Shown here piece by piece: positions 1 to 22,097 of a stretch of 64,000 nucleotides of DNA. This DNA is from a virus. Under the pieces are notes generated by a model, which saw only the letters and a list, made by a program, of their open reading frames with translations, did no database searches and was not told the origin of the DNA. The stretch is from IMG/VR virus record IMGVR_UViG_3300042503_001836, positions 1 through 64,000 of that record, one strand, 5' to 3'. The first letter of the stretch is position 1; each line of letters begins with the position of its first letter. A program made the translations under genes and the position numbers.

Positions 1-194
1 CTTGAGAAAGGTGAGTAAAGCTATCAAAGTGCTGTTTTATCTGATTTAGGGGACTTATCCGAGGTCGCATCGGCGAGAGCCTTTATCATCAGATCCCTAC
101 AGTTAGAGGGTTTAGGTGGTCAAGCTACTGTTTCAAGCCTGTCTATTAGTTCCTGTTTAATCTTTAATTCCCCGGCCAAAGTTCCTTAAAGGTA

Positions 195-312
195 GTTTCA
201 ATCCAACTCCTTGTTACGGGAGTATTTGTGTTTAGCTATTGTTTCAAGCCTGTCTATTAGTTCCTGTTCCTAAATGTTTCAATCCAACTCCTTGTTAAGG
301 GAGTATTTTAGC
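195..312 (-). CRISPR. Degenerate two-repeat mini-array (195-231 and 276-312) of the phage type I-C repeat
   Basis: GTTTCAATCCAACTCCTTGTTACGGGAGTATTT and GTTTCAATCCAACTCCTTGTTAAGGGAGTATTT compared with array consensus GTTTCAATCCAACTCCCTATTAAGGGAGTATTTATAC; 44-nt gap between them. Confidence 0.85.
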
Positions 313-456
313 TTTTGAGGGAAGTACCTTGAAGCTTTTGCCTCGTCTCCTTAACCCAGGTTGCAGCCCTGACTTCTTATTTTTCCCAGCGTTAGAAGTC
401 AAACGACAACAATCTAAAAATTGAAGTCTGACGCGCAGTGCTACAAGCACATATCT

Positions 457-485
457 AATATATCAAATATTTCTGATTGTGTCAA
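457..485 (-). promoter_or_regulatory. sigma70-type promoter pointing into the non-coding region 1-450
   Basis: Minus strand TTGACA-17 nt-TATATT. Confidence 0.7.
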
Positions 486-589
486 GCCTTTATTTTAAAA
501 TTCTCTAAAACAACAAGCTAACTAAAAATCTACCCTAAACCCCCCTAATTCTGCTAATCTTAAATAACTGATATGCAAGGACAATCATC

Positions 590-805
590 ATGGGCAGGAA
601 AAAACAAAACAAAACCACCTTCATAGTTCGCATGGATGCTGATAAACGTCGGCAACTAGAGGAACAGATCATCGAACTAGGGTACTACTACACTAGGGAT
701 GGTGTATTGCTCCCTAGCATTGGCAGATATTTAGAGGACGTAGTAGACGGTAAAATATTACACCATAAAAGAATTTTAGATTTAAGTATTGACAATTCAA
801 AATAA
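590..805 (+). CDS. Small DNA-binding protein, possibly ribbon-helix-helix
   Basis: 71 aa; basic N-terminus, then alternating beta pattern TTFIVRMD followed by a helix; AGGA RBS. Confidence 0.45.
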   Translation: MGRKKQNKTTFIVRMDADKRRQLEEQIIELGYYYTRDGVLLPSIGRYLEDVVDGKILHHKRILDLSIDNSK

Positions 806-823
806 CTGATATACAGTTATAAA
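789..823 (+). promoter_or_regulatory. Phage early-type promoter, copy 1
   Basis: TTGACA-17-TACAGT; 35 bp identical to 2611-2645. Confidence 0.75.
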
Positions 824-872
824 CATAGGAGACAGGGAAAAACAAAAAACCACTCACGCCCTGGTTAAGTTG

Positions 873-2066
873 ATGACTACAGCTAAATTACAACAACGTC
901 AAGCTACATTAATCAACTTAATCACTCGTGTAGGCGGTCGCCAAAACATCCAGAAATGGATGGATGAACTTCTGCAAATTGACGTAAAACTTGAAACAAA
1001 GGAAGAAAACAAGATGTTTAAAATCAATGCTACTGATTTACATATCTCTATTCAAAAAAAATTAGCCAAATTAATTGATGGTAAGCTGGTAAAAGGCGTT
1101 ATCACTACATCAGTTGATCCTGACTCTCTCAACTGGCACGAATTAGAAATTAATATCTATGGCTACATTGATACTGATGCTGACAGACTATACGAATGTG
1201 TGTCATGGGAAGAAGCAACTCTAATTGTGGATAGCTTAAAATTAGCTATTAAATCTAATTTTACCAGTCTAGATGACTGGCATAAATATCAAACAAGAGG
1301 TGCTTGGGGATTCTTTGGGAGCAGCCTAGATCAAGGCATTAGCTACTACATACTTGGACTAGATCGCAAATATTGCGGTCAAGTTTTCAAAGCTACTGGA
1401 CGTAATAAAGACGTTGCCACTTATGAACAGATGGACGGCTTTGGCTTTGCCGATTCTGTTGACAAGCACGTTTTCACAAAATGGGAATACAAACACTCAG
1501 ATGGTACTATCATCTGGGTTGCTGAAAATAGAAAAATTTACACTATTCCTACAGAACAGGAAGTAGTGGGGAGAATACAGTCTCTAATTTATGAACACTG
1601 CAAAAGAGAAAAAATGACATGGCAAGATTTTGTTAGTGACATTGAAAATCGAAAACAAAAAAATGCAGCATTTGATGCTGCTGAAGAAGCCGCTAGAAAG
1701 GCTGCTGAAGTAGCTATTCCTGCACCAGAATGGTATCAAAAAGAAATCTACTCCAAATCACTATCTCGCTTTTGGATAGGCGATGATTACTTATACTTCT
1801 TTTACTGGAACACTAGAGATGGCAGTGTTTGGGAAGAGTGCGATGATCGTACTCGCGGCTTAGATAACAGAACCAGAAATCGTAGGTCTTTAGGATCTGA
1901 CAAGGAAGTGGTATTAAACTACATCCATGCGCTACTTCAAAAGCGTGAAGAGTACAGTCAACGCAAGCAAGAGCGTGAGGAAGCTTATGAGGCTTATAAG
2001 AAGGCTCAAAAAGCCAAAGGTGGCATCATTAAGCCTTTAGAAAAATGGCTGCAAACTGTAGCCTAA
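873..2066 (+). CDS. Hypothetical protein
   Basis: ~397-aa open ORF downstream of a promoter; no recognised motif. Confidence 0.75.
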   Translation: MTTAKLQQRQATLINLITRVGGRQNIQKWMDELLQIDVKLETKEENKMFKINATDLHISIQKKLAKLIDGKLVKGVITTSVDPDSLNWHELEINIYGYIDTDADRLYECVSWEEATLIVDSLKLAIKSNFTSLDDWHKYQTRGAWGFFGSSLDQGISYYILGLDRKYCGQVFKATGRNKDVATYEQMDGFGFADSVDKHVFTKWEYKHSDGTIIWVAENRKIYTIPTEQEVVGRIQSLIYEHCKREKMTWQDFVSDIENRKQKNAAFDAAEEAARKAAEVAIPAPEWYQKEIYSKSLSRFWIGDDYLYFFYWNTRDGSVWEECDDRTRGLDNRTRNRRSLGSDKEVVLNYIHALLQKREEYSQRKQEREEAYEAYKKAQKAKGGIIKPLEKWLQTVA

Positions 2067-2123
2067 CCCACCTGATGAGTCCGGCTGACTACCGGACGAA
2101 ACTACCATCTTGGTAGTCGTGGG
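2067..2123 (+). ncRNA. Hammerhead ribozyme (type I) HH1
   Basis: CCCAC-CUGAUGA-GUCCGG(7-nt loop)CCGGAC-GAAA-CUACCA(ucu)UGGUAG-UC-GUGGG; predicted cut after C2118. Confidence 0.93.
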
Positions 2124-2153
2124 AAGTTTATAGTTATACCCACTAGGAGATAT

Positions 2154-2510
2154 ATGATCTACTCATTTTTGGATAAGGAAGTTGCTGAAAAATTAAATGT
2201 AACTGCCGATGCTACATTTACCAAAGAATATGGGAACAAGTTTGTTTTCTCTTTAGATGAAAACAATCTAGTAATCAGTGAAGAAGAAGACAACTATGGA
2301 GACAAATCAATAGTCAACGCTGATCATATTCAGCTAAAACCAGGTGATAAAATTATTGCTAGATCAATGGATGGACTGACTGTCATCAGTCTTTTAAAGA
2401 TGGGCGTGAAAGTCGCATTACTTCAATTTGAAGTAGTGGAACTTCCTATTGATAAACAAACATCTGCCAAGAAAGCAGAATTAGTCTATTCATTAGTCTC
2501 ACTAGACTAA
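2154..2510 (+). CDS. Hypothetical protein, paralog of 2999-3298
   Basis: AGGAG RBS; shares MIYSFLDKE..EKLNVT.D and LK.GD.IIA..MDG.TV with 2999-3298. Confidence 0.8.
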   Translation: MIYSFLDKEVAEKLNVTADATFTKEYGNKFVFSLDENNLVISEEEDNYGDKSIVNADHIQLKPGDKIIARSMDGLTVISLLKMGVKVALLQFEVVELPIDKQTSAKKAELVYSLVSLD

Positions 2511-2513
2511 TAC

Positions 2514-2571
2514 CCCACCTGATGATGAGAGGTTGACCACCTCTCGAAACTACCATCTTGGTAGTAGTGGG
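2514..2571 (+). ncRNA. Hammerhead ribozyme HH2
   Basis: CCCAC-CUGAUGA-U-GAGAGG/CCUCUC-GAAA-CUACCA/UGGUAG-UA-GUGGG; one extra U after the core; predicted cut after A2566. Confidence 0.88.
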
Positions 2572-2610
2572 AAGTCTATAATTATACCCACAAAAAAATT
2601 AATTTAGGGG

Positions 2611-2645
2611 TTGACAATTCAAAATAACTGATATACAGTTATAAA
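2611..2645 (+). promoter_or_regulatory. Phage early-type promoter, copy 2
   Basis: Identical to 789-823. Confidence 0.75.
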
Positions 2646-2674
2646 TAAGAAACCGAAAGAGGAGAATAAAACAA

Positions 2675-2908
2675 ATGATTAACAAAGCATTAGAAAGACC
2701 TGAATATTTAAAACCCCAAGAACAGAAGTTCTGGGATGTATGGACTTATAGATATCAAGATGGTAGCGAAGTTTTAAGTTGTCATATTTTTACAGACAAG
2801 AAAGAAGCAATTAAATTTGCTTCTGAATCTGGTGGGGACTTTAACGAAGAATACTATTATTCTACAATTGAAGAAATGAAAAAAAAGAGAGGTATTAAAC
2901 ATTTCTAA
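2675..2908 (+). CDS. Hypothetical protein
   Basis: GAGGAG upstream; 77 aa; stop codon directly before HH3. Confidence 0.75.
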   Translation: MINKALERPEYLKPQEQKFWDVWTYRYQDGSEVLSCHIFTDKKEAIKFASESGGDFNEEYYYSTIEEMKKKRGIKHF

Positions 2909-2910
2909 TA

Positions 2911-2966
2911 CCCACCTGATGAGGGAGGCTGGCTACCTCCCGAAATTACCATTAGGTAATAGTGGG
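2911..2966 (+). ncRNA. Hammerhead ribozyme HH3
   Basis: CCCAC-CUGAUGA-GGGAGG/CCUCCC-GAAA-UUACC/GGUAA-UA-GUGGG; compensatory changes in stems II and III; predicted cut after A2961. Confidence 0.92.
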
Positions 2967-2998
2967 AAGCTAAAGTTTCAAACCCACAAGGAAACAAG

Positions 2999-3298
2999 AT
3001 GATCTATTCTTTTTTGGACAAAGAAATTACTGAAAAATTAAATGTAACGCCGGATGTTATATTTTCAAAACACAAAAAAGAAAACCTATTTCGATTTAAA
3101 ATTGAAGGTAGAAAATTGACTGCTATTGACACTACTTTCAATTTTAGTGGTCATATTTATGAGAATGTCAATATTATCGAGTTAAAAGTCGGCGATCAAA
3201 TAATTGCCGAAGCAATGGATGGTTCAACTGTAGTTGAATTAAACCATTTGGGTGTTAAAGTATCACTACACACTGACAATAAATTAGTTAGTATCTAG
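2999..3298 (+). CDS. Hypothetical protein, paralog of 2154-2510
   Basis: Shared N-terminal and internal motifs; AAGGA RBS. Confidence 0.8.
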   Translation: MIYSFLDKEITEKLNVTPDVIFSKHKKENLFRFKIEGRKLTAIDTTFNFSGHIYENVNIIELKVGDQIIAEAMDGSTVVELNHLGVKVSLHTDNKLVSI

Positions 3299-3307
3299 CT
3301 ACTAATC

Positions 3308-3364
3308 CCTACCTGACGAGGGAGGTTAGCTACCTCCCGAAACTACCATCTTGGTAGTAGTGGG
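3308..3364 (+). ncRNA. Hammerhead ribozyme HH4
   Basis: CCUAC-CUGACGA-GGGAGG/CCUCCC-GAAA-CUACCA/UGGUAG-UA-GUGGG; CUGANGA core; predicted cut after A3359. Confidence 0.92.
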
Positions 3365-3396
3365 AAGCTTAAATTCACACCCACAAAGGAAATAAG

Positions 3397-3696
3397 ATGA
3401 AAGGTTATTTTGTTGACAATTCCAACTTCTCTGGAAAAGATGACCTTTTCCAAGTCCTAAATGGTAAAAGCCGTCGGTTGACTTTTGAAGGTGAGAAAAG
3501 AAATGAAATAGACGGCACTTGGAATACCAGAAATTTTGATGGTATCTCCTACGCGCATCCCGACTCTATTTTGTCTTCTATTCCAGAAGAATTTAAAGAC
3601 CGATTTAGTAGAGTACCCGATCCGGGTAGCACCTCACCCACTTATAAACCCACAGGCGAACCCCGCGAATGGGGTGATTACGGAGATGATGACTAA
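3397..3696 (+). CDS. Hypothetical protein
   Basis: AAGGA RBS, ATG, 99 aa. Confidence 0.7.
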   Translation: MKGYFVDNSNFSGKDDLFQVLNGKSRRLTFEGEKRNEIDGTWNTRNFDGISYAHPDSILSSIPEEFKDRFSRVPDPGSTSPTYKPTGEPREWGDYGDDD

Positions 3697-4054
3697 GGGT
3701 ATTCTATGGGGTGTCTTACAATCACCCCTAACCATCCTCAAGCGTTACCCCTATGGAACGCCGCACCACGTAACACTTCAGTTTGGAGTAGATCGTGAAG
3801 ACTGGATAGACTGGGAAGGTAAGATATTCCAAGCCTCAACACTCTATGAGGCTTGGAACGGTAAAATACAAGCGGTAACGTTGCAATTACCTAAAAGTAT
3901 TCCCTGTCAGATTCAAACACCACACATAAGTATTAGCTGGTGTGATGGTGTCAAGCCTTACGAATCAAATACTATGCTTGCATCAGAATTTGATTCTCAG
4001 ATAATCGTAAGCGCGTATAAATTTAAGATTGAATTTCTGGAGTGGACAACATGA
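3686..4054 (+). CDS. 2H phosphoesterase (2',3'-cyclic phosphodiesterase-like)
   Basis: Two HxT/S motifs (HVTL, HISI) followed by VKPYESNTML, as in tRNA-ligase CPDase-type 2H domains; start reassigned to ATG 3686/3689 after GGAG. Confidence 0.7.
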   Translation: MMTKGILWGVLQSPLTILKRYPYGTPHHVTLQFGVDREDWIDWEGKIFQASTLYEAWNGKIQAVTLQLPKSIPCQIQTPHISISWCDGVKPYESNTMLASEFDSQIIVSAYKFKIEFLEWTT

Positions 4055-4461
4055 ACGTATATTTCTTTTCTCGCCATGATGCACAACCTCAAATGATCAC
4101 CGATCTAGGTGGCACGATCACAGAACAATTCAAAGGAACAATCTCTAGCATTGTTAAAGATGGAGATTCTATCAAGTTTTCAGAAATAACATTGGGTGAA
4201 ACTGAAGCGGTTTCACATAGTATCCCCAAAGATTCAATAGTAGTGGCTGTTGCACCACTACCCATACAAGAAGCATGGCTAAAGGCTGGGATTGAGGTGT
4301 TTCTCGCACCACAAAACAGAAAAGAGACAACAGAGGACGGACAAGTGATCTTTAACTACTCAGGGCTATTGCGTATCTTAAAAATAGAAGTTATTACAGA
4401 ACAATGGACAGGTGCAAGTCCTACTATTGAAGATAAGCACTTAGAGCGAAGCAAACTATAA
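4051..4461 (+). CDS. Hypothetical alpha/beta protein with N-terminal FSRH motif
   Basis: ATG overlaps the previous stop (ATGA); MNVYFFSRH...VVAVAPLP. Confidence 0.7.
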   Translation: MNVYFFSRHDAQPQMITDLGGTITEQFKGTISSIVKDGDSIKFSEITLGETEAVSHSIPKDSIVVAVAPLPIQEAWLKAGIEVFLAPQNRKETTEDGQVIFNYSGLLRILKIEVITEQWTGASPTIEDKHLERSKL

Positions 4462-4471
4462 GTAAAGCTTT

Positions 4472-4496
4472 ACCCGTCACCAATGGCGGGTTTTTT
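4472..4496 (+). terminator. Intrinsic terminator ending the ribozyme operon
   Basis: ACCCGTCA-ccaa-TGGCGGGT followed by a T run. Confidence 0.75.
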
Positions 4497-4563
4497 ATTT
4501 ATTTTAGGTACTAAAAAACCCACATCTAAAGATAAGATCCGGGTTAAATTTATTAAAATATAT

Positions 4564-4830
4564 TTAATTTTTCCCTGCACTATTTTTAATTTCCAATGCT
4601 CTGATCCTCTCATCCTGACTAGCCAATGCAGCTAAGATAGTCTTGTTATTTTCATTCAGAGTAGACAGTTCCACGCGCATCCGTACTATTTCAGAATAGT
4701 TCTGGGATAAAGTATTGACAACGCTGATTGCACTTGTAGAAATTATCCCAGTAACCAACATGACTATCCACGATGATAGTCTCATGTTACTTGGGTCTTT
4801 GGATTCTTCCTCTTCTATGCTCATATTCAC
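4564..4830 (-). CDS. Small single-TM coiled-coil protein (holin-like or membrane protein)
   Basis: Hydrophobic WIVMLVTGIISTSAISVV followed by a heptad-rich C-terminus. Confidence 0.55.
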   Translation of the reverse strand: MNMSIEEEESKDPSNMRLSSWIVMLVTGIISTSAISVVNTLSQNYSEIVRMRVELSTLNENNKTILAALASQDERIRALEIKNSAGKN

Positions 4831-5000
4831 CCCCTTTGATATCCCCCATGCCTACGTATACATAATTACTACTAAATTAGCATATAAAATTTTTAAATAA
4901 CAAAAAATCCTTACTACAATTACCACAGTAGTAAGGATGATAGAATAAAACAAAGGTAAAACAAGATGTACTTTCACAAGGACACTTGATCTATCTTATA

Positions 5001-6089
5001 TCACAGATTTTTATTAATTGCAAACATCTGTGATAATTTTAGGAGATTTGACTCTAGAGTCAACTTTGGGAACTTGGAATTATTGAACTCAGTCTCGGAT
5101 TCTCTAAGTAAAATTGATGCGTCTACCAGTTTATTAATTGGTAATTTACTACCCCAAGCCCTAGCAGCATTATAGGTTTTTGAGTCACAGGTCATAATGG
5201 TGTAGTCAATGGGTGTAGACTGTGAGGCAATGGCATTTCTCACAAAATTACTAACCTCACCTAACAACACAATCGGATCACTACCAGATTTAAAAAGTTC
5301 TTTCAACTGCCTATAGATTGCCGTGTAATCTTGACTAACACAGGCATCAAGTAAAGCTATCATATTGACCGCAGGAACAACGCCCAAAAGTTCATAGATA
5401 TCATTTTCCGTCTTAGCTTCTGACAAAATAACTTTATCCAAAAGTGTCAAGGTATCTCTAAGAATCCCATCGCCGTGACTGACTAGAATCTTGAGTAAAT
5501 CAGGTGCAATACTGTAATCTTCCTCTTCTAAAATTTTTTGGCAGTATGACCGCAGTTCGTAGTCTTTAATTGGGGCAAAGTTAAAGGTTTGACACCTAGA
5601 CTGAATAGTTTTAGGAACTTTTGATAACTCCGTTGTCACTAAGATAAACACAACCTTCTGACCTGGCTCTTCTAAAGTCTTTAACAGGGCATCAAAAGCT
5701 TGTTTAGTAAGATTGTGTGCCTCATCTAAAATATAGACTTTATAGCGAGAATAACCTGTATAGCAGACCTTAGAAACTAGTTCACGGGCATGATCAACGC
5801 CATTGTTAGTTGCACAATCTATTTCATAGATACCAAAGCTAACACCAGCCTGGATATCCAAACAAGTTCTACAAGTTCCACAAGGATCTGAAGTGATACC
5901 AGTTTGGCAATTCAAAGACTTAGCTAAAGCCCGCGCTGTTGATGTCTTACCCGTACCTCTAGCACCTGAAAATAAATAAGCAGAATGTAATTGTTGCTTA
6001 TTAATTGAATTGATTAAAGTTGTAGTGGTAAGACGTTGACCTACTACTTCTTTTAGAGTTTGGGGACGGTATTTTTGAACTAAAGACAT
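5001..6089 (-). CDS. dnaX: DNA polymerase III gamma/tau clamp-loader subunit
   Basis: KYRPQT, GARGTGKTS Walker A, Cys zinc module, DEAH, LLKTLEEP, SRC motif. Confidence 0.95.
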   Translation of the reverse strand: MSLVQKYRPQTLKEVVGQRLTTTTLINSINKQQLHSAYLFSGARGTGKTSTARALAKSLNCQTGITSDPCGTCRTCLDIQAGVSFGIYEIDCATNNGVDHARELVSKVCYTGYSRYKVYILDEAHNLTKQAFDALLKTLEEPGQKVVFILVTTELSKVPKTIQSRCQTFNFAPIKDYELRSYCQKILEEEDYSIAPDLLKILVSHGDGILRDTLTLLDKVILSEAKTENDIYELLGVVPAVNMIALLDACVSQDYTAIYRQLKELFKSGSDPIVLLGEVSNFVRNAIASQSTPIDYTIMTCDSKTYNAARAWGSKLPINKLVDASILLRESETEFNNSKFPKLTLESNLLKLSQMFAINKNL

Positions 6090-6142
6090 GGTTAAATTCC
6101 TTTCAATAAATAAAAAATCCCCTCTTTAGGGGACTATTTAAA

Positions 6143-6364
6143 CTAATCAATTTTTACCTGGATCTTGACATTGGGAAAATCTTTTTGGATAGCGGCGATA
6201 TCACTTTCCCAGTCATCCCATTTTAGACGCCCAAGATGTTTTATATCATCATTTCTACACTCACGGAAAACACCATAACCCCAAAGGGCATTTAATCTAC
6301 CACAGATTTTCCTACTAGCATCATCATTGTACGGCATGATAGCTAATCTATACTGTTTCATTGA
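6143..6364 (-). CDS. Hypothetical protein
   Basis: ORF within the operon; probable start MKQYRL. Confidence 0.55.
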   Translation of the reverse strand, partial: SMKQYRLAIMPYNDDASRKICGRLNALWGYGVFRECRNDDIKHLGRLKWDDWESDIAAIQKDFPNVKIQVKID

Positions 6365-6695
6365 TTTGTCTCCATAAATTTGCAAAATCTTTAACAAGAG
6401 CTTGACTATCAGGATTAACCTGATACATCTTTCTTGGTTGTCCTCTACCTTTGATTGGTTGCTGATAGCTAATAATTAACTTTTCAGCAAGCATAAACTT
6501 TAAAGCATTATTCAAAACGCAAGCTGATAGTTTTAAAGTAGGATACTGTTTCAAATCAGCTTGTATTTTAGCCTGGTAAGTGTCTCCTGACTGGAGAAGA
6601 AAGCATACCCACCAAACAGTTTGACACTGTGATAGATGGGTATAATCTGAAGATTTGTAGATAGTGCTAATCTTCATAAAAGTCTTCGGAGCCAA
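6348..6695 (-). CDS. pex: PadR-family winged-helix regulator, cyanobacterial Pex-like
   Basis: YP.LKLS..VL..ALKF, GRGQPRKMYQV and ANLW match the Pex pattern LSDTVLYSA.KFL...GRGRPRRMYQ...ARLW. Confidence 0.75.
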   Translation of the reverse strand: MAPKTFMKISTIYKSSDYTHLSQCQTVWWVCFLLQSGDTYQAKIQADLKQYPTLKLSACVLNNALKFMLAEKLIISYQQPIKGRGQPRKMYQVNPDSQALVKDFANLWRQINETV

Positions 6696-6921
6696 GTCTA
6701 AACTTTAAGTCTTCAATTTCCATTTCTAGCTGTCTTATTTCCTCTCTAGCTTGTTTGATGTTTGAAGAATGATCAGTATTGTTCAATTCCTCATCATCTT
6801 TAAGCTTTTTAATCAAGTCCTCTTGTTCTACTATGCCAGCTTCTAAGACTTCAATTCTCATTTCAATGTCTTCTAAATCCATGATGTTTTCTCCTAAAGT
6901 TAAAGTTCTTTTTTCAGCCAT
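6667..6921 (-). CDS. Acidic coiled-coil hypothetical protein
   Basis: 84 aa with heptad repeats. Confidence 0.6.
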   Translation of the reverse strand: MAEKRTLTLGENIMDLEDIEMRIEVLEAGIVEQEDLIKKLKDDEELNNTDHSSNIKQAREEIRQLEMEIEDLKFRLGSEDFYED

Positions 6922-7166
6922 AGATCAAGTTCCTTATTCCAATAATGAAACCTCATCATCAGCTTAGTAGCTTGCATCAAAAAGTATTCTCGCAATCCTT
7001 TAAATGACAGTTCTATACACTCATCAGCAAACATAATAGAACCATCGTTAAACACCAGATACTCCATAATACAACAGCCACTAGAATCGTATTTATAGAT
7101 ATCTATCATACGTTCCTTGAGTTGTTTTACCCTACCATTAACTAAATACATCACACAGTGTTTCAA
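6900..7166 (-). CDS. Hypothetical protein starting in, or just after, a solitary CRISPR repeat
   Basis: TTG start inside the repeat, or ATG 8 nt after it. Confidence 0.55.
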   Translation of the reverse strand: MKHCVMYLVNGRVKQLKERMIDIYKYDSSGCCIMEYLVFNDGSIMFADECIELSFKGLREYFLMQATKLMMRFHYWNKELDLWLKKEL

Positions 7167-7196
7167 TCCAACTCCCTATTAAGGGAGTATTTATAC
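7160..7196 (-). CRISPR. Solitary perfect CRISPR repeat (array-1 type)
   Basis: 37/37 match to the array 1 repeat; no neighbouring repeat. Confidence 0.95.
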
Positions 7197-7351
7197 TTTC
7201 AGAACTCTAGGTCGAGTTCCCAGTTAAGCAAGTTTTCAAGCTTACCTGTATACTGTTTTACTTTTGTCATGTCTTTTTGCTTGACATTATTCTAAAATAA
7301 TAGTATAGTTATAAAACAATGTCAAGTAAAATAATAACATAAATTAATAGT

Positions 7352-9673
7352 ATGTCTGTATTATCTGGAACGCAGTTAGACCTATTGTCATGCCTAAACG
7401 TCAGCAACGGCGTTGCTAAAATAGACAACCAAGAACCAATAGCGGATTATATATGGTTTGTCAGTCAGGATGCAGACATCACACCTGAACTATATGATTA
7501 CTGTGAAAAATTATTTACCAGCAACTTACTTGTATTAGATTTAGAAACCTACGGAGCAGAAATGCCTGAAAATGGGGAGTATAAAAGAAAACAAACTAAC
7601 GCCCAGTCATATAAGAAAGGCAAAACATCAGGATTACAGGAATTAGCATTATCTCCTATTTATGGAGATATTAGATTACTCCAGTTAGCATCATTAAGTA
7701 GTGATAAAGTTTTAGTTGTGGACTTCAAAACCAAATGGGATAGACCACAGCTATCTATAAAATATAAGGAATTTATTGATTATTTAATTGAGAAAATGAG
7801 AGAGTTTACCAAGCGTAAAGGTGTATTCATTGGGCATAATATAGGATTTGATCTAGGTTTTCTAAGGGCTAAATATGGTATTAAAACATGGAAAGCTTAT
7901 GACACTATGATTATGTCTCAACTACTATCAGCAGGTATCCTTACGCATAGGCATGGGTTAAAAGATTGTTGTTATCGTTACTTGGGTATAGATGTAGACA
8001 AGACAGAGCAACTAGCAGATAATAGTTTGCCATTAAGGAACGCACAGATCAATTATGCAGCGTCTGATATCGTTAATACAGGTGAGTTGTTTGTCAGATT
8101 AAGACAGGAAATTAAACTAGCTGAACTAGAAGAAGTAACAGAGATTGAGGCAAAGTTTACCCCGGCATTAGTAGAGATTAATTATTGGGGGATGCCTGTG
8201 GATTTAGGTGAGCTAAATAGACAAATTAATTGGTATAACAGAAAACTAATGGAACTTGATCAAGAGTTCCAACAAATCCATCCTGGTTTAAATATCCGAT
8301 CTAGTCAGCAAATAGCGGGTATTATTGCGCTTTTAAATAAAAGGGATGCTGAACAGGATGATGAGATTGGGGAACAAGTAGATAGCATTGAGACAGATGT
8401 ATTTAATGCTATTCAAACTGTTAAAGCTAAAGGTAGTAGTAAATCCGATTTAGCACTACTCAATGATCACCGTGTAGTGCAGCTAGTTGTAGACTTTAGA
8501 ACAGTTTCAATCTATCTCAACTACTGCCAACAAGTGAAGCAAGAAATAGTCTGGATTGAGGGAGTACCGCGTGTAAGTGGAAGTATTAGACAGCTAACCC
8601 GTAAAGGTCAAGGAAGGACTTGTTCAGGGAATAAAAACGCACCTGTTAAGTGTCAAGGTGTTAATATCCAGAACCCTCCGTCTTTAAAGAGTATTAATGT
8701 GAGATTGAAAGCTTGCGGATGTCCTAAAGTTAGGGATATTTTTAGGGCAAAGCAAATAGAACTAATCCCAAAGACAGAACTGAGGCTCATAGCTCAACAT
8801 GAATCACACGCTTTAGTTTGGTTGATGGATTTTAGGATTGTAGATGTTGACTTACCTGCTGCACATTTAGCTATCGCAACTTACATGAGTGGTGAACAAG
8901 ATGTAGAAAAGGGTGTAGATCGCCATGCTATTACAATGAAATGTGTTTTTGACTCCGTAGATAGTTATAAGGAGCATAGACACCTATCAATTAAGGACAT
9001 CACAGCCATTAATAAGAAGGATGATCATAACTTATTTAAAAAGTTTACAAAGATTAGGTCTATGTGTAAGAACGTCGTCTATTCTGGGCTTAACTTTGGG
9101 TCTGCTCCTACACTGCAAACAACTATAAAAACTAATAGTAATGAAGAGGTAGCTTTGCCTATTTGCGAAGCAATGACAGAAGCTTTTCCTGTTATTCTGC
9201 CTAAAATAGCAGAACTTAGGGAAATCCTGTGGAAGAAGGCAAACGATAATAAAATTTGTATTGACGGTCATTGGTATGGTACTTTTCAAGATGACTATGG
9301 AACGTATTCTACACCGGGTTATAGACGACGTATTTATTCGTTCTGCAAGACAAACAAAGCAGATCAACACTATGTCCCTAAAGGAGATATTGCAAATTGC
9401 TGGCTTGCAAGTGAATCAAGTAGCGTCAAAGTGGGTATAGCTACTATATATCAGCAAGGAGTATTTACTGAAAAGTTTGATTTAAGATTATCTTCTATTT
9501 GTCATGATGAGGTTGTTTTATTTTGTCGAAAATACCAGGATATTGAAGTAGCAGCTTTAACTCAAGATTCAATGAGACAAGGTTTAGAACACTTTACGGG
9601 TAATGGTAAAATACCATATCCTGATATGATGAAAAATCCTAGAAAATTAATTAGTGCTAGTTGGGAACATTAA
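7352..9673 (+). CDS. polA: Family A DNA polymerase with 3'-5' exonuclease domain
   Basis: Exonuclease motifs DLET, GHNIGFDL, YAASD; NIQNPP; motif A VDVDLPAAHL; motif B R...KN..Y; motif C CHDEV. Confidence 0.85.
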   Translation: MSVLSGTQLDLLSCLNVSNGVAKIDNQEPIADYIWFVSQDADITPELYDYCEKLFTSNLLVLDLETYGAEMPENGEYKRKQTNAQSYKKGKTSGLQELALSPIYGDIRLLQLASLSSDKVLVVDFKTKWDRPQLSIKYKEFIDYLIEKMREFTKRKGVFIGHNIGFDLGFLRAKYGIKTWKAYDTMIMSQLLSAGILTHRHGLKDCCYRYLGIDVDKTEQLADNSLPLRNAQINYAASDIVNTGELFVRLRQEIKLAELEEVTEIEAKFTPALVEINYWGMPVDLGELNRQINWYNRKLMELDQEFQQIHPGLNIRSSQQIAGIIALLNKRDAEQDDEIGEQVDSIETDVFNAIQTVKAKGSSKSDLALLNDHRVVQLVVDFRTVSIYLNYCQQVKQEIVWIEGVPRVSGSIRQLTRKGQGRTCSGNKNAPVKCQGVNIQNPPSLKSINVRLKACGCPKVRDIFRAKQIELIPKTELRLIAQHESHALVWLMDFRIVDVDLPAAHLAIATYMSGEQDVEKGVDRHAITMKCVFDSVDSYKEHRHLSIKDITAINKKDDHNLFKKFTKIRSMCKNVVYSGLNFGSAPTLQTTIKTNSNEEVALPICEAMTEAFPVILPKIAELREILWKKANDNKICIDGHWYGTFQDDYGTYSTPGYRRRIYSFCKTNKADQHYVPKGDIANCWLASESSSVKVGIATIYQQGVFTEKFDLRLSSICHDEVVLFCRKYQDIEVAALTQDSMRQGLEHFTGNGKIPYPDMMKNPRKLISASWEH

Positions 9674-16802: not shown

Positions 16803-17663
16803 TTAGGTTAATTTTGTTAGACTTACTCCGTTGGGCAAATCATTACTAAGTATCACCTGATAATCGCTAAAACTGCGAGGTACAGCAACGGTAGACTTAA
16901 TTTCCAGTTTATCAAATAACTCATGAACAGGCGCACTGCCATACTTATTATCGTGACTAAAAATATACAGACCACGACACGCCATAAGACCACGACTAGC
17001 AGAACGATCAAACTCCCAAGATTTAACAAGTGCATCCCACAATAATTCTAGGTCGCGTTCCGTTACGTGGCTGGCTAAACTAGGATTATAAAAAACGTAA
17101 GAACGATATAAACCATAGGGAATAGTTTCTTTACGACCCATAGTTTTGTTGTCTTTGTTTTCTTGGGCTTCAGTGGACGCACAGCGAGTAATGCAAACAG
17201 ATTGAGGAAATATAGGATCAATGCTTCTAGCAAAGCTAAATTGTGACGCACCCCATACCTGTCCTGCTTGGTAGTCTCCAGTAGACATAACTGCACCAAA
17301 CATTCTTACATCATAGTAATTTTGGCGCATCCAATTATTAACAACGTCAACACCAGTTTTATCTTTTTTAGACTTCTTAGTTCCAGAAGCATCATAAGCC
17401 GCTTCTAAAGTATTGTTCAGAACCGATCCTGACTTAATAAAGATTCTGAATCTTTCTGGTTTTTGCTCATCAGAGGCAACCATTTGAATGTAGTTCCTAA
17501 CTTTACGTTTTAGACAAGCATCAGTTACCAAACCTTGATTAGTTTGAGGATCAATTCGTGGTTGATTACCAGCATCAGGATCACCGTTAGGATTACCGTC
17601 AAGACAATCAAATAATAGAATAGCGTCGTGTTTTTTGGTTGGGTCTAAATAAATCTGTGTCAT
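16803..17663 (-). CDS. cas7: Type I-C Cas7 (Csd2)
   Basis: GNPNGDPDAGNQPRID, TDACLKRKVRNY, DVRMFGAVM, TMGRK..IPYGLY. Confidence 0.95.
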   Translation of the reverse strand: MTQIYLDPTKKHDAILLFDCLDGNPNGDPDAGNQPRIDPQTNQGLVTDACLKRKVRNYIQMVASDEQKPERFRIFIKSGSVLNNTLEAAYDASGTKKSKKDKTGVDVVNNWMRQNYYDVRMFGAVMSTGDYQAGQVWGASQFSFARSIDPIFPQSVCITRCASTEAQENKDNKTMGRKETIPYGLYRSYVFYNPSLASHVTERDLELLWDALVKSWEFDRSASRGLMACRGLYIFSHDNKYGSAPVHELFDKLEIKSTVAVPRSFSDYQVILSNDLPNGVSLTKLT

Positions 17664-17681
17664 GATGTTTACCTTTTGTTA

Positions 17682-19337
17682 TTAGTCGTTTTCAGTTTCA
17701 GTAGTTTCTAATTCAGCTTCAGTTCTTTTAGCATAGAACTCACTTTTCATTTGCCACCAACCTTGAAAGAATAAAGCTTGAGACTTTGTATCAAGAATAT
17801 CTGGCAGACTAGTTATATCAAAATCCTTAAATTCTTCAGTTAATTTAGGTTTGATATAACCAACATTTTCTAAGTGATAACCCATGCAGTGACTACAGAT
17901 TTTAGCAAACACTTGGGAAGGTGTAGATGATAAAATTTTCAAGTTTTTCATCACTACAGTTTTATCCTCAGAAATCTTCTGTGATTTCCAATGTACAGTG
18001 TGAAATAAGAAAGATATTCTACCCAGTTTAAAGGCAGAATCTAAGGTTAATTGTCCAGTGGGATAACTCATGTTATTGCTTGCTAAGTACAGATATAAAC
18101 CTTGTGCTTTGACATAGCTAAATTGTCTTTCTGCACAGATTCTAGAAATAATCTTTTGGGCGTAACCATCCGATAAGGCAGATCCGAGTAGTGCAAATTT
18201 GGTAATTTCTCTAGCGATACGTGACTTGTAATTGTCCTTACCATCAGCAAAAGCACATTTCACTAACAACCAAATTGGACTAGCTTTAGTAGCGCAACTC
18301 AGTTGTATTTCTACAAATCTTTTTAGGGATGATTTGACCTGACCTAAAGTGGTTTCTGTCCAACTAGATAAAGATATTCTCCCAGCGTTACCAGTTAGGC
18401 AAGCTATGAAAAATAGACTTTCTTCCAGTTCCTCAACATTCAGATTTTGAGGTTTATTTGGCGTGGAAAATATAGTTTCTAAAGATGGGTTATCCCACAC
18501 TTCGGCATTTATACCTTCACTGGTTTCCTCACCCCAATAAACAAAAACCTGATTTTCTGTCTTGAACCTATTGTTAGGTGAATCAAGTAAAAAGTTAAGT
18601 GTCTTATGTGTTCTAATTGCGCTTCTAATACTCATAGAAGCATTAGCATTACCAGCTAATCCATAAGACTCAGTAACTTCTTTATCAAAACTTACTAAAG
18701 CTGCACCTGCTGACTGGGAATTAGGAACGCCTTTAATCTTTAGTGGAACTACAGTTTTTAAAACTAATGCCTGTTCTTCACCGGATATTAAACAAAGTCC
18801 TCGTGTTCCTTCATTAAGCTTCAAAAGGTCACTATTTGCCTTCTTAACCCACCATTCCTTAATAATAGGAATACTGGTTATTTGCTCACCATCTAGCAAA
18901 AAAACAAATACTGATTTAACCCAATCTTCTTTAACTTTAGGGTTAACCTCTTTTAGCTGCTTAAATATCTTAGAACTGTCAGTTGATGTGACATATTCAT
19001 AGACTTTCCTAACAGCTTCATGTTCAGTAGCATTAATACATTGCTGTAATAACTCTAAGTACAAAGGCTGTCTTTTTCGTCCACGATCACCAGCACCAAA
19101 TAAATATTCAGCACTATCATCTATTAAAAGAGGTTTTTCACCATTCCTTAACAGATCCGGTACTAAAAGTTTCTTACTTAATGATGGTTGTCCTTTACTT
19201 TTTGGTGTTTCTAAAGACGTTATACTACCACTACTTAAATCAATAGCATAGTTAACACCTTTAGACTCGTAACCGTAGGGAGATAGTAAATTTTGACTAT
19301 CTAAAAACTTGCCTAGTTTATCTAATTCGGACAGCAT
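17682..19337 (-). CDS. cas8c: Type I-C Cas8c (Csd1)
   Basis: Lies between cas5 and cas7; CLISG, KIKGV...GAALVSF..ESYG, L.GNAGRIS, C-terminal Cas11-like F.LGR...QALF..G. Confidence 0.88.
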   Translation of the reverse strand: MLSELDKLGKFLDSQNLLSPYGYESKGVNYAIDLSSGSITSLETPKSKGQPSLSKKLLVPDLLRNGEKPLLIDDSAEYLFGAGDRGRKRQPLYLELLQQCINATEHEAVRKVYEYVTSTDSSKIFKQLKEVNPKVKEDWVKSVFVFLLDGEQITSIPIIKEWWVKKANSDLLKLNEGTRGLCLISGEEQALVLKTVVPLKIKGVPNSQSAGAALVSFDKEVTESYGLAGNANASMSIRSAIRTHKTLNFLLDSPNNRFKTENQVFVYWGEETSEGINAEVWDNPSLETIFSTPNKPQNLNVEELEESLFFIACLTGNAGRISLSSWTETTLGQVKSSLKRFVEIQLSCATKASPIWLLVKCAFADGKDNYKSRIAREITKFALLGSALSDGYAQKIISRICAERQFSYVKAQGLYLYLASNNMSYPTGQLTLDSAFKLGRISFLFHTVHWKSQKISEDKTVVMKNLKILSSTPSQVFAKICSHCMGYHLENVGYIKPKLTEEFKDFDITSLPDILDTKSQALFFQGWWQMKSEFYAKRTEAELETTETEND

Positions 19338-19963
19338 AATACACCGTCCTTTAATATAAAATTGGCAAATTCAACAACAGATTTTCCTTTGGTAATCCCA
19401 TTTTTAGACTTCCAGGAAATTTTACCTTTCTTATCTGGAATAAAATGCTCTTGTTTAGGCATCATTCCCAGATCCTTAACACCTCTCAAAGTTGCGCTAG
19501 GGTATTCTTTTTCTTGGGGTAATCCAAAGTAAGCAATATACTCTCGACAGCCAAAATAAGGCTGTTTAAAACATTTACCTTCTTTGATTCTGTCAGCAAT
19601 AATCGCGTAATACTTATCAGGATTAAGGTTGTCATCTGTTAATTCAAAGCAAAAATCAATGTGATAGGCAACGTCTTTTAACAATATCTGAGTCCGTTGT
19701 GTACGGTCTTCCTCAATTGTCTTTAACTTACCCACATTGCGGTAACTTTGCTTTGACTTGATCATGTTCCGCATGACGGACAAATGTTTGATTGGCTTTA
19801 GTACAGAAATACTATTTATGGAATATTTTATCTCAGGTTTCCAAAAAATAGATTCTAGGATGCCAACAGCCGCAGTGAACGTCATAACTGGATAGGTATG
19901 CGGTTCACTCTTGTACTCAGGTCTGGTAAATAGGGCAAAGTCACCCCAAACTTTTAATTGCAC
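19322..19963 (-). CDS. cas5: Type I-C Cas5 (Cas5d, crRNA-processing)
   Basis: VWGDFALFTRPE.K.E..TYPV.T..AA.GILESIFWKP, RTQR, QPYFGCREY. Confidence 0.95.
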   Translation of the reverse strand: MQLKVWGDFALFTRPEYKSEPHTYPVMTFTAAVGILESIFWKPEIKYSINSISVLKPIKHLSVMRNMIKSKQSYRNVGKLKTIEEDRTQRTQILLKDVAYHIDFCFELTDDNLNPDKYYAIIADRIKEGKCFKQPYFGCREYIAYFGLPQEKEYPSATLRGVKDLGMMPKQEHFIPDKKGKISWKSKNGITKGKSVVEFANFILKDGVLCCPN

Positions 19964-20042
19964 ACAATAAACCTTTGCTCTCTCTAATTTTGTAAAATAA
20001 TGTTAGTCTTATTTTACGTTGTCTCCTTATCATAATGTACTA

Positions 20043-22097
20043 ATGAGATATTTGTCAAGAGTCAATAAAAACAGTCTAAAACAAGAATTAAAACAGCACT
20101 TAACTAACGTTGCTACAACGTCTAAAAGCATTGTACCATCTGAGTTTCAAGCAGTAGCCTATTATGCCGGGCTATGGCATGATCTAGGTAAGTATAGAGA
20201 AGAATGGCAATATTATTTATTACAACGGGTCGCAGGTGACAAAGTAAAAACTATATCACACGCTGCTCATGGTGCAGTATTAGCTTTGCAGTCACACACA
20301 AGCAAGAAAGATCCGCCAGCTATGGCTTATATAATTGCCGGACATCATGCAGGCTTATATGCTAAAGACAAGTTAAAAGGAACTGAGTACAAACAAAAAG
20401 CAGAAGGTCTAAACGAGTGTTTATGCAACGCTAAAGATGAAATACCTGGTTTTATGCCGGACAAATTACCAGATATTGATTTACCTAAACTATCTAGGGA
20501 GTTTGCTATCAGGATGTTATTTTCTGTGGTAGTTGATTGTGATCGCACCGATGCCCAAATATTTGAATCTGGTAAACCACCTGCACAAATTAAAGACATA
20601 ATTCCTAACTTCCCTACATTCTCTCATACTTCAGATATTGGATTAATTAGGTCTAAGTTTGCAAATTATTGTATAAACGCAGCTAAATACAATAAAGGAT
20701 TTTTTAGATTATCCGGTGCTTGTGGAATAGGTAAGACCATTGCAAGTGCTAAGTTTGCTTATTTGCACAGTGATATTCATAATATGTCAGGAATAGTTTA
20801 TGTTAGTCCGCTAAAAAGCATTATTGAACAAACAGCTAATGTATACCGGGATCTGTTTGGTGATAATGCAGTATTAGAACATCATTCAGGATATGACCCT
20901 AGTGAAGCTAACCATGAAGAGTATAAGCTAAACACAGAAAGATGGGATAAACCAGTAATTGTTACTAGCGGTGTACAGTTTTATGAAAGTTTATTTGCCA
21001 ATAGTCCCTCTAAGTGCCGTAAACTGCAAAGCTTAATCAACAAAGTGATCTTAATAGATGAATCTCAAACTATACCCACTCATTTAGTCCGTCCAACCTT
21101 AGATGTACTAAAAAGTTTAGTTAATGATTGGGGCTGTACTGTAGTTTTAATGAGTGCCACACAGCCAGCATTTAACAACCTAAAAAATGATGATATCAAA
21201 AACATTACAAATATAATCCCTGAACAAGATTGTATAGATTTTTTTGATAAACTTAACAGGGTTAACTATAAATTTAATCCGGCTTTGTGGGAAATAGAAA
21301 ACCTAAAAGATGACGTGATTAATTCAGGAATAAAGCAAGGTTTAATAATAGTTAACACGACTAAACTAGCAAGAGACATCTATCAGGAATTATCTGAATA
21401 TTTACCCTGTTATCATCTCAGTTCTAGAATGTGTCCCGCACATAGACAAGCAACATTAAACACAGTAAAGACGTTATTAGCTGACAATAAACCATGTTTT
21501 TTAGTTAGTACACAAGTAATAGAAGCAGGAGTAGACATAGACTTTCCTCAAGTATGGAGACAGTTAGCACCATTAGATGCAATTATCCAAGCTGCGGGTA
21601 GATGCAACCGTGAGGGTAAACAAGATAAAGGCAATGTAATAATTTTTAAGATGAAAGGTTTTGTTTCATCTGACTATAATAATCGTCAAAAAATCACAGA
21701 ACAGTTATTACTACAAACGGATCTAAATATTAATATGCTTAACACAATTAATAGATATTTCCGTATTCTGTACAATGAAAACCATGATGGCGGATTAGAA
21801 ATACAAAAGCTTAGGGAAAACTATAATTATCCCGAAGTAGCAGAAAAATATAAAGTTTTGGATGACACACAGATATCTGTAGTAGTTGAATATGGGGATA
21901 ATCAACAATTATTAAATGAGTTAAAAACTAAGGAATTTTTAACTAACAATGACTGGAGAAAATTACAGAAATTTACAGTCAATTTACCGCAAAGTATGGT
22001 TGATTTTGAGGAAGTCAATGGAGTAAAATATTGGATAGGGGAGTATAATAATAATGTTGGTTGTCTACCCTTCGAGTATAAAGTTTTAATAGCATAA
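20043..22097 (+). CDS. cas3: Cas3 HD-nuclease/helicase, compact and divergently transcribed
   Basis: HL, WHDLGK, GHH, VVDCD, G.GKT, IDESQ, MSATQP, STQVIEAGVDIDF, QAAGRCNR. Confidence 0.95.
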   Translation: MRYLSRVNKNSLKQELKQHLTNVATTSKSIVPSEFQAVAYYAGLWHDLGKYREEWQYYLLQRVAGDKVKTISHAAHGAVLALQSHTSKKDPPAMAYIIAGHHAGLYAKDKLKGTEYKQKAEGLNECLCNAKDEIPGFMPDKLPDIDLPKLSREFAIRMLFSVVVDCDRTDAQIFESGKPPAQIKDIIPNFPTFSHTSDIGLIRSKFANYCINAAKYNKGFFRLSGACGIGKTIASAKFAYLHSDIHNMSGIVYVSPLKSIIEQTANVYRDLFGDNAVLEHHSGYDPSEANHEEYKLNTERWDKPVIVTSGVQFYESLFANSPSKCRKLQSLINKVILIDESQTIPTHLVRPTLDVLKSLVNDWGCTVVLMSATQPAFNNLKNDDIKNITNIIPEQDCIDFFDKLNRVNYKFNPALWEIENLKDDVINSGIKQGLIIVNTTKLARDIYQELSEYLPCYHLSSRMCPAHRQATLNTVKTLLADNKPCFLVSTQVIEAGVDIDFPQVWRQLAPLDAIIQAAGRCNREGKQDKGNVIIFKMKGFVSSDYNNRQKITEQLLLQTDLNINMLNTINRYFRILYNENHDGGLEIQKLRENYNYPEVAEKYKVLDDTQISVVVEYGDNQQLLNELKTKEFLTNNDWRKLQKFTVNLPQSMVDFEEVNGVKYWIGEYNNNVGCLPFEYKVLIA

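Follow-up and report, generated by a model that had tools for sequence, protein, structure and literature searches.

The window analysed here covers positions 1-64,000 of a cyanophage record in IMG/VR (IMGVR_UViG_3300042503_001836; 118,553 bases, 118.5 kb). Between positions 2064 and 3400 on the + strand, small open reading frames (ORFs) are separated by four short intergenic elements, each consisting of a type I hammerhead followed by a second copy of CCCAC, the sequence normally forming the 5' strand of its stem I, and this downstream copy is the subject of the present analysis. Comparison of window positions 1-8000 with GenBank phages by blastn identified Aphanizomenon phage vB_AphaS-CL131 as the nearest named relative, with Nodularia phages more distant; the matches were to coding sequence alone and the ribozyme region was without a match. 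No Pfam or PHROGs match was obtained for the ORFs at 870-2066, 2154-2510, 2675-2908, 2999-3298 and 3397-3696.

Anatomy of the four intergenic elements

All four elements (HH1-HH4) displayed the same order. A 5-nucleotide (nt) strand, which is CCUAC in HH4 and CCCAC in the others, is followed by CUGANGA, stem II, GAAA, stem III, U-H and GUGGG, with stems II and III both closed by loops. As stem I, formed by the two outer strands, is open, the elements are type I hammerheads.

2067-2123, + strand: HH1, type I hammerhead (from sequence, pattern and parser, and a consensus fold with relatives); CCCAC 2067-2071; CUGAUGA 2072-2078; stem II and loop II 2079-2097; GAAA 2098-2101; stem III 2101-2117; C17 2118; predicted cleavage 2118/2119; GUGGG 2119-2123
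2514-2571, + strand: HH2, type I hammerhead; CCCAC 2514-2518; predicted cleavage 2566/2567; GUGGG 2567-2571
2911-2966, + strand: HH3, type I hammerhead; CCCAC 2911-2915; predicted cleavage 2961/2962; GUGGG 2962-2966
3308-3364, + strand: HH4, type I hammerhead; CCUAC 3308-3312 (U-G wobble); core CUGACGA; predicted cleavage 3359/3360; GUGGG 3360-3364

The full core (C3 U4 G5 A6 N7 G8 A9, G12 A13 A14, A15.1-U16.1, and H17 not G) was present in 4/4 copies, with C, A, A and A as H17 in HH1-HH4, respectively. In HH2 an additional U (2526) separates A9 from stem II, as it does in many relatives. Stop codons of the upstream ORFs end 0, 3, 2 and 9 nt ahead of stem I in HH1-HH4.

2064-2066: TAA, upstream stop of HH1, abutting stem I
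2508-2510: TAA, upstream stop of HH2
2906-2908: TAA, upstream stop of HH3
3296-3298: TAG, upstream stop of HH4

A parser run over the whole 118,553-base genome detected no hammerheads beyond these four. HH1 and HH2 share stems, as do HH3 and HH4, and two of the flanked genes are paralogous; because the copies are paralogous, agreement among the four is not independent evidence. An RNAalifold consensus of 50 of the 77 distinct GUGGG-family ribozyme sequences gave a canonical hammerhead of 16 pairs, 10 of which are supported by double changes that compensate each other, and stem I in this set displayed 14 one-sided changes, all wobble-compatible, with 0 broken pairs in 250 cells. No Rfam model matched the window at its gathering threshold. 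In E-value mode two chance-level hits and two weak RAGATH matches were returned, RAGATH-1-hammerhead (RF03152) at 2045-2123 (E 6.8; 18 bits against a gathering threshold of 56.3) and RAGATH-7 (RF03159) at 2480-2644 (E 0.014; 23.4 bits against 111.8), the latter covering HH2, its hairpin and a promoter-like site. The missed threshold reflects the models and not the hammerhead core, which is intact. The RAGATH-7 match hints at a perhaps related ribozyme-plus-downstream module; a literature search found no paper text on this family.

Each predicted 3' product begins GUGGGAAG, and CCCAC lies 15-16 nt further on. The sequence GTGGGAAG occurs at 2119, 2567, 2962 and 3360, which are the four predicted cleavage sites, and the one remaining exact copy in the window (60323) has no hammerhead core around it. 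ACCCAC is found at 2138, 2586, 2982 and 3379, and in the 118.5-kb genome GTGGG-N8-25-CCCAC occurs at these four places alone. The second copy is followed by AGGAG or AGGA and then ATG at HH1, HH3 and HH4. At HH2 no Shine-Dalgarno sequence (SD) lies directly 3' of it, and an A-run and a promoter-like site (2611-2639) are found instead. The first-pass annotation of this DNA had described the same anatomy (product start, variable linker, ACCCAC, with an SD directly 3' in three of four cases) and all of its coordinates proved correct. The ORFs led by these SD motifs are as follows.

2154-2510, + strand: ORF of 118 amino acids downstream of HH1; SD AGGAG 2145-2149, ATG 2154-2156
2999-3298, + strand: ORF of 99 amino acids, paralog of ORF 2154-2510; SD-like AGGA 2989-2992, ATG 2999-3001
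3397-3696, + strand: ORF of 99 amino acids downstream of HH4; SD-like AGGA 3387-3390, ATG 3397-3399

Conservation and covariation of the downstream strand

Relatives were collected by three IMG/VR pattern scans anchored on stem III of the window type (scan 1), a common stem II (scan 2) and GTGGGA (scan 3), none being anchored on the downstream copy. Together with the window these gave at least 200 unique parsed type I hammerheads with at least 58 different stem I 3' strands; scans 2 and 3 give lower bounds, and counts drawn from them hold among the matches listed. The first-pass annotation had staked its reading on homologous loci conserving the downstream copy, and other phages do conserve it. 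A 5-bp hairpin starting at nucleotide 1 was found in 19/19 unique loci of the window's cluster, and in an alignment of this cluster the stretch from ribozyme to start codon had no invariant columns other than GUGGGA and the CCC of the second copy. A set of 27 long-type loci listed, which have a downstream CCCAC by selection, displayed a GUGGG-CCCAC linker 7-20 nt long and an upstream strand of CCCAC (20 loci), CCCGC (5), CCCAU (1) or CCUAC (1). At all seven loci with an upstream wobble variant the downstream strand stays Watson-Crick CCCAC, and no variant is mirrored. This contrast between upstream wobble and constant downstream CCCAC, as read from the sequences, supports pairing and not repeat identity as what is kept. 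A general rule of wobble asymmetry between the upstream and downstream strands was considered and dropped; both strands wobble across the whole GUGGG family.

The same loci bear on a different origin for the direct repeat, as a functionless relic of cassette spread left by duplication or by insertion with a short target repeat. Ribozyme-plus-gene cassettes have been duplicated in the window (the shared stems of HH1/HH2 and HH3/HH4; the paralogous ORFs starting at 2154 and 2999), in keeping with such spread. However, the repeat has stayed intact while the linker diverged in both sequence and length, the upstream variants are without exception wobble-compatible (the 14 changes and 0 broken pairs given above), an upstream variant is mirrored downstream in 0/7 long-type loci, and the strand covaries across families. 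We regard a relic as very improbable, the least credible of the rival explanations.

The design was also present in a cultured phage. Between gp142 and gp141, CL131 carries one type I hammerhead built in this way (MG209611.1, 105178-105227, - strand; locus L305), comprising a stop TAA, an upstream CCCGC, GUGGGAAGCC, a 10-nt linker and CCCAC; this hammerhead is unannotated in its record. A core pattern detected a hammerhead in 0/2 Nodularia phages (2AV2 and kac65v151). Many phage contigs carried two to three hammerheads within about 1 kb (L104, L130, L136, L157, L203, L214, L237, L256 and L261), and on L104 a second CUGAUGAG core starts about 14 nt past the first cleavage site, so that ribozymes can sit almost back to back.

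The downstream strand covaried with the start of the 3' product. Among products beginning G[U/C]GG (95 loci listed), position 2 and its downstream partner were U-A in 65, U-G in 3, C-A in 2 and C-G in 7 (Fisher 1.7e-6), and the same covariation was observed for loops of 4-5 nt (35/3/0/5; Fisher 6e-5). The upstream partner of position 2 followed the same rule (U2-A 68, U2-G 14, C2-G 13). Families starting GCGG carry CCGC downstream in place of the CCAC-type strand, and the fractions passing a 4-bp criterion were 0.75 for GCGGG loci (of 4) and 0.57 for GCGGA loci (of 7). A second copy matching GUAGC as GUAGC..GCUAC was found in 2/2 loci, and further matching second copies were GACAG..CUGUC, GUAUC..GAUAC, UGUGG..CCACA, GGGC..GCCC and UGGC..GCCA. 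Structure pairs were counted in an alignment of 58 product starts of 14 nt each, which comprised 37 distinct rows; as these rows were selected for G3, G4, C9 and C10, pairs 1-12 and 2-11 alone are informative. Pair 2-11 was UA in 21 rows, CG in 4, UG in 4 and other in 8, and cells changed on both sides numbered 4 compared to 1.3 in shuffles, a value reached by 8/500 shuffles.

Across stem I classes, nt 1-4 had a Watson-Crick partner no more than 30 nt away in a class-weighted 13.8 of 58 classes listed, compared to 8.4 in shuffled sequences (standard deviation [sd] 2.0; maximum 13.7 in 500). In a previous clustering, made from scans 1 and 2, the count was 17.9/65 compared to 7.9 (sd 2.3), with 0/500 shuffles reaching the observed value. 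A permuted k-mer control was rejected as a null, since partners of permuted GUGGG (ACCCC, CACCC) fall partly on the real CCCAC site and inflate the expectation; shuffles and a swap control were used in its place.

An alternative that makes no use of pairing with GUGGG is that CCCAC forms part of the translation start region or of a protein site. An SD-like motif lies 0-2 nt 3' of CCCAC in 15/27 long-type loci listed, which gives these loci, together with HH1, HH3 and HH4, a layout of ribozyme, predicted hairpin and ribosome-binding site (RBS) like that of the engineered RiboJ; HH2 and the remaining 12/27, in which no such motif occurs within 8 nt, are without it. The strand is, however, equally kept where no RBS follows (HH2, L226, L048 and others), and it becomes CCGC, GCUAC, CUGUC and so on as stem I changes. 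A translation or protein site is very unlikely in our judgement.

Predicted folds of the cleaved and uncleaved RNA

A hairpin from nucleotide 1 was predicted both as the minimum free energy (MFE) structure and as the centroid in 4/4 leaders.

2119-2143, + strand: HH1 product hairpin; GUGGG 2119-2123 with CCCAC 2139-2143, 15-nt loop; MFE -6.3 kcal/mol, z -0.74; pair probability (P) 0.94-0.95 (70-nt product)
2567-2591, + strand: HH2 product hairpin; CCCAC 2587-2591; MFE -6.8 kcal/mol, z -1.90; P 0.99
2962-2987, + strand: HH3 product hairpin; CCCAC 2983-2987; MFE -7.9 kcal/mol, z -1.84; P 0.62-0.90
3360-3384, + strand: HH4 product hairpin; CCCAC 3380-3384, all pairs Watson-Crick; MFE -6.8 kcal/mol, z -2.21

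In 70-nt cleaved products, 19/20 hairpin pairs had P of 0.89-1.0 and one HH3 pair had 0.62. With the second copy barred from pairing, GUGGG was left free in HH3 (0.61 unpaired) or paired elsewhere (in HH1, into the coding region). A terminal hairpin from nucleotide 1 is thus predicted in 4/4 products, which agrees with the position of 5' stabiliser hairpins, whose stems begin at the 5' end or a very few nucleotides from it.

The first nucleotides of the 3' product also contain the strand of a putative pseudoknot with loop II.

2125-2128, + strand: HH1 pseudoknot strand AGUU, with loop II GACU 2087-2090; 3 Watson-Crick pairs and 1 G-U (the G-U by eye)
2574-2576, + strand: HH2 pseudoknot strand GUC, with loop II GAC 2535-2537
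2968-2971, + strand: HH3 pseudoknot strand AGCU, with loop II GGCU 2931-2934; 3 Watson-Crick pairs and 1 G-U (the G-U by eye)
3366-3369, + strand: HH4 pseudoknot strand AGCU, with loop II AGCU 3328-3331; 4 Watson-Crick pairs

At least four Watson-Crick pairs between loop II and nt 6-12 of the product were present in 41/81 GUGGG-type loci listed, compared to 15.9 with permuted loops (sd 3.1; maximum 25). Judged by its sequence, the pseudoknot is of the type described for hammerheads in 2011 (PMC3088659, in the passages available), in which a loop of one stem pairs, over about 4 bp or more and with covariation, with the tail beside another stem. In the window its product strand is nt 7-10, which the alternative hairpin would place in its loop, and so the ribozyme state and the hairpin state exclude each other.

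In a short form of the element, from a large and mostly GC-rich group in scan 3, 28/71 unique leaders listed begin GUGGGAAACCAC (GUGG-GAAA-CCAC), a short hairpin whose 3' strand overlaps the pseudoknot strand ACC(A). It is here that the downstream strand might be thought to serve mainly the tertiary structure of the ribozyme or a contact needed for cleavage, with the hairpin as a by-product: in the GUGGGAAACCAC form ACC(A) pairs with loop II GGU/UGGU, and in L097 CCGC could, by eye, pair with loop II GCGG. In the window and in all long-type loci, however, loop II (CUGACUA, UUGACCA, CUGGCUA, UUAGCUA) contains no complement of CCCAC, and the long-type pseudoknot uses nt 7-10 only. C12 of the short form lies outside the pseudoknot except in 3/81 loci listed, yet pairs with G1 in 26/37 rows. 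We consider a mainly tertiary role very unlikely.

For the uncleaved RNA, the hammerhead fold (HH) was compared with an alternative (ALT) in which stems II and III are unchanged and GUGGG is paired to the downstream CCCAC. Nearest-neighbour energies, in which the pseudoknot is not counted, gave free-energy differences (ALT minus HH) of +1.1, +1.1, 0.0 and -1.2 kcal/mol for HH1-HH4, and the ribozyme fold and the alternative hairpin are predicted to be near-isoenergetic. For uncut HH4 RNA the predicted MFE structure is the one with the hairpin, which beats stem I even before cleavage. The competition for GUGGG between the upstream and downstream CCCAC, as claimed in the first-pass annotation, is therefore real in folding, with the conformers within about 1.2 kcal/mol of each other.

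This balance could serve a switch or attenuator acting before cleavage, in which the downstream copy would set the fraction of RNA that is cut or the timing of the cut, in response to terminating ribosomes, temperature or Mg2+, and both polycistronic and processed RNAs would be made. The near-equal energies and the predicted MFE of uncut HH4 are consistent with this, as is the position of the stops 0-9 nt from stem I, where a terminating ribosome, of the footprint size that we assume, would presumably cover the 5' strand. A stop triplet ending -3 to +6 nt of stem I was found in 132/200 loci listed compared to 85/200 control segments, and the overlap of the short-type hairpin strand with the pseudoknot strand would make the two states exclude each other strongly. 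Against a switch, the competitor lies 3' of the ribozyme, which would therefore fold first, and the pseudoknot, being outside the energy model, should tip the uncut RNA to the ribozyme fold. Stop proximity had no link to the second copy (61/95 loci with it and 71/105 without; Fisher p 0.66). Predicted SD accessibility hardly changes on cutting, and in 12/27 long-type loci no SD-like motif follows within 8 nt. A pre-cleavage switch seems to us unlikely, although of the rival explanations it is the most credible.

The predicted probability of the SD being unpaired in the cleaved and uncleaved RNA was 0.39/0.49 for HH1, 0.63/0.63 for HH3, 0.61/0.61 for HH4 and 0.69/0.60 for HH2. A switch acting by occlusion of the RBS was rejected, predicted SD/RBS accessibility being essentially equal in cut and uncut RNA. 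The first-pass annotation had joined two proposals, a 5' hairpin that displaces the upstream product and a switch beside the RBS that is coupled to translation termination at the upstream stop. The first of these is indirectly supported by the predictions and comparisons, the hairpin being the MFE of 4/4 leaders and the downstream strand being kept despite changes in the linker and covarying with the 3' strand of stem I. As to the second, the geometry of stop and stem I is as described (0-9 nt), yet neither predicted SD accessibility nor the comparison of loci gives it support.

The reading we prefer, whose chances we consider evenly balanced, is that the hairpin frees the 5' fragment once the RNA is cut, renders cleavage irreversible and, much as a natural RiboJ would, leaves the mRNA with a 5'-OH end that is base-paired. 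From the anatomy, conservation, covariation and predicted energies described above we infer self-cleavage, an order of folding, product release and stabilisation as follows. GUGGG of stem I would have two partners, the upstream CCCAC in the active ribozyme and the downstream CCCAC in the hairpin, and a pseudoknot of 3-4 bp between nt 7-10 of the product and loop II would help to hold the ribozyme fold. Because the downstream copy is transcribed last, the ribozyme fold would form first and cut. After the cut the upstream partner would be on a separate RNA, joined to the product solely by the 5-bp stem I and the 3-4 bp pseudoknot, and the intramolecular hairpin would take GUGGG, strip off the 5' fragment and prevent religation. 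The downstream mRNA would then have a 5'-OH end with its first nucleotide paired, directly ahead of the RBS where one is present, and such an end may be a poor entry for 5'-end-dependent decay by RNase J or RNase E. The upstream mRNA would end, on its 3' side, in stems II and III with a 2',3'-cyclic phosphate. With both product ends structured, a polycistronic phage transcript would be cut into units with structured ends.

Several observations weigh against this reading. With 5 bp and a loop of 15-16 nt the hairpins are small, and their stability is ordinary (z from -0.74 to -2.21), 45, 10, 10 and 6 of 200 shuffles folding as well or better. A hairpin that matches stem I in stability in the uncut RNA might, moreover, hinder the ribozyme just as readily as assist it. 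Among the 200 unique type I hammerheads listed, 105 had no hairpin with four or more Watson-Crick pairs counted from nucleotide 1, and a second copy is thus not needed for a hammerhead to exist; the feature is absent from most loci with A/U-rich 6-bp stems and from a few GUGGG-type loci (L181, L191, L236, L240, L027). Part of the CCAC conservation in the short form has another cause, since CC, and sometimes A, belong to the pseudoknot. The loci are, moreover, not phylogenetically independent. Without the GUGGG class the partner count was 13.0/57 compared to 8.2, a value reached by 7/500 shuffles (36/500 for k=5), and outside this class the enrichment is about 1.6-2 fold and marginally significant. 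In the swap control the k=4 count was 13.8 compared to 6.5 (Wilcoxon p 0.048; 0.073 without GUGGG), and there was no effect at k=5. An ensemble test on the GUGGG-family leaders of scan 3 (nt 1-3 paired) was not significant at the cluster level (15.0/23 compared to 11.7, sd 1.9; shuffle maximum 15.7-16.2); by locus, 61/71 listed scored >0.5. That shuffles reach above the observed value in this test follows from the ease with which a G-rich 5' end pairs with C-rich leaders.

A broader form of the same proposal, which we put forward tentatively as less probable than the reading for the window elements, is that a large family of phage hammerheads with GUGGG or GCGG products are two-state 'punctuation' modules, in which the five nucleotides that first build the ribozyme would swap partner after the cut. 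The swap would eject the upstream mRNA, capped at its 3' end by stems II and III and the cyclic phosphate, and pair the otherwise vulnerable 5'-OH end, so that each gene of an operon would be separately stabilised.

Surroundings of the array and known systems

The ribozyme array lies in a region bounded by a promoter-like site and a terminator-like hairpin.

789-825 (site 789-817), + strand: promoter-like module, TTGACA, 17 nt, TACAGT, ahead of ORF 870
2611-2647 (site 2611-2639), + strand: promoter-like module, TTGACA, 17 nt, TACAGT, after HH2 and ahead of ORF 2675
4472-4491: terminator-like hairpin after the last ORF

With the promoter-like site 789-817 at one end and the hairpin 4472-4491 at the other, the region looks like one operon. 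The sequence surrounding the two promoter-like modules (789-825 and 2611-2647) is identical, and an A-rich stretch containing TTGTCA is also found after some relatives' ribozymes (L226, L048).

Directly 3' of the array, in the same operon, ORF 3707-4054 (+) matched Pfam PF08302, a fungal tRNA ligase cyclic phosphodiesterase domain of the 2H family (E 3.2e-5; 24 bits against a cutoff of 23), and two HxT/S motifs (HVTL, HISI) were identified by eye; a PDB sequence search with this ORF returned nothing meaningful. On its sequence the 2H-phosphoesterase-like product might act on the 2',3'-cyclic phosphate ends left by hammerheads. Alternatively it may be an unrelated 2H enzyme, for instance one directed against cyclic-nucleotide defence. 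In CL131, about 1.5 kb separates the homologous region from an annotated polynucleotide kinase/phosphatase.

Elsewhere the window carries type I-C CRISPR-Cas genes (16806-22094), an IS200/IS605 pair, and a ribonucleotide reductase split by an intein with a LAGLIDADG endonuclease, together with a large serine recombinase (37769-41206 and 34827-36263).

16806-17663, - strand: Cas7
17685-19337, - strand: Csd1/Cas8c
19325-19885, - strand: Cas5d
20043-22094, + strand: Cas3-like helicase
42858-43253, - strand: TnpA of the IS200/IS605 pair
43305-44489, + strand: TnpB of the IS200/IS605 pair

A 2011 survey (PMC3088659) reported type I hammerheads of phages and prophages that lie close together and flank individual genes without a known function, and proposed that these ribozymes divide long transcripts into mRNAs of gene length. 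They share with the window elements the core, the three-helix junction and a pseudoknot that replaces the loop-loop contact; the available passages of the survey mention neither a downstream copy of the stem I strand nor a 5' hairpin on the product, whereas the window elements have the second copy. No published description of a conserved downstream stem I copy was found, including in the available passages of PMC3088659 and PMC8782182, in a search that did not extend to subscription journals or the PMC3088659 supplements. Gene-flanking phage hammerheads and their pseudoknots are thus already known (PMC3088659) and the conserved downstream copy is apparently new, as far as the available parts of these sources go. 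The survey could do no more than suggest transcript cutting as the purpose of phage hammerheads. If true, the strand swap would explain the release of products and the irreversibility of cleavage in ribozymes held by stem I plus a pseudoknot, and also the strong conservation of the first 12 or so nt of the 3' product. CL131, which grows on Aphanizomenon flos-aquae, is a cultured system that carries the design and is suited to testing the idea.

Stem-loops at the 5' terminus stabilise mRNA in Escherichia coli and Bacillus subtilis (PMC3997798, in the part available). Those of ompA, papA and others resemble the predicted phage hairpin in lying at the extreme 5' end without a single-stranded overhang, and are reported there to block 5'-end-dependent decay. 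Their ends, however, arise by transcription initiation and carry a triphosphate, whereas the phage end would arise by a predicted ribozyme cut and carry a 5'-OH on a short 5-bp stem. The glmS ribozyme, as described in the same passages (PMC3997798), likewise places a 5'-OH on a coding fragment by self-cleavage of the leader, and RNase J1 degrades the fragment from that end. There the 5'-OH is a point of entry and the mRNA is destroyed; the phage design would do the opposite by pairing the end, and the strand swap, if true, would explain how a 5'-OH cut becomes productive, unlike the destructive one of glmS. RNase E and RNase J are named as the central ribonucleases in a paper on cyanobacteria (PMC10939160, in the passage available).

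The closest parallel is RiboJ (PMC6206723, in the part available), which joins the sTRSV hammerhead to a 23-nt hairpin proposed to raise mRNA level or stability and to expose the RBS. In RiboJ a ribozyme removes the upstream RNA and a hairpin stays at the new 5' end just ahead of the RBS, as would be the case for the phage element where an RBS follows. RiboJ is engineered and follows a promoter, whereas the phage element is natural and lies between genes. The hairpin of RiboJ is a separate added element, whereas that of the phage would be made from the leftover strand of stem I itself and so competes with the ribozyme fold. The phage element offers a compact natural template for synthetic-biology ribozyme insulators and, if the strand swap is true, one more economical than RiboJ.

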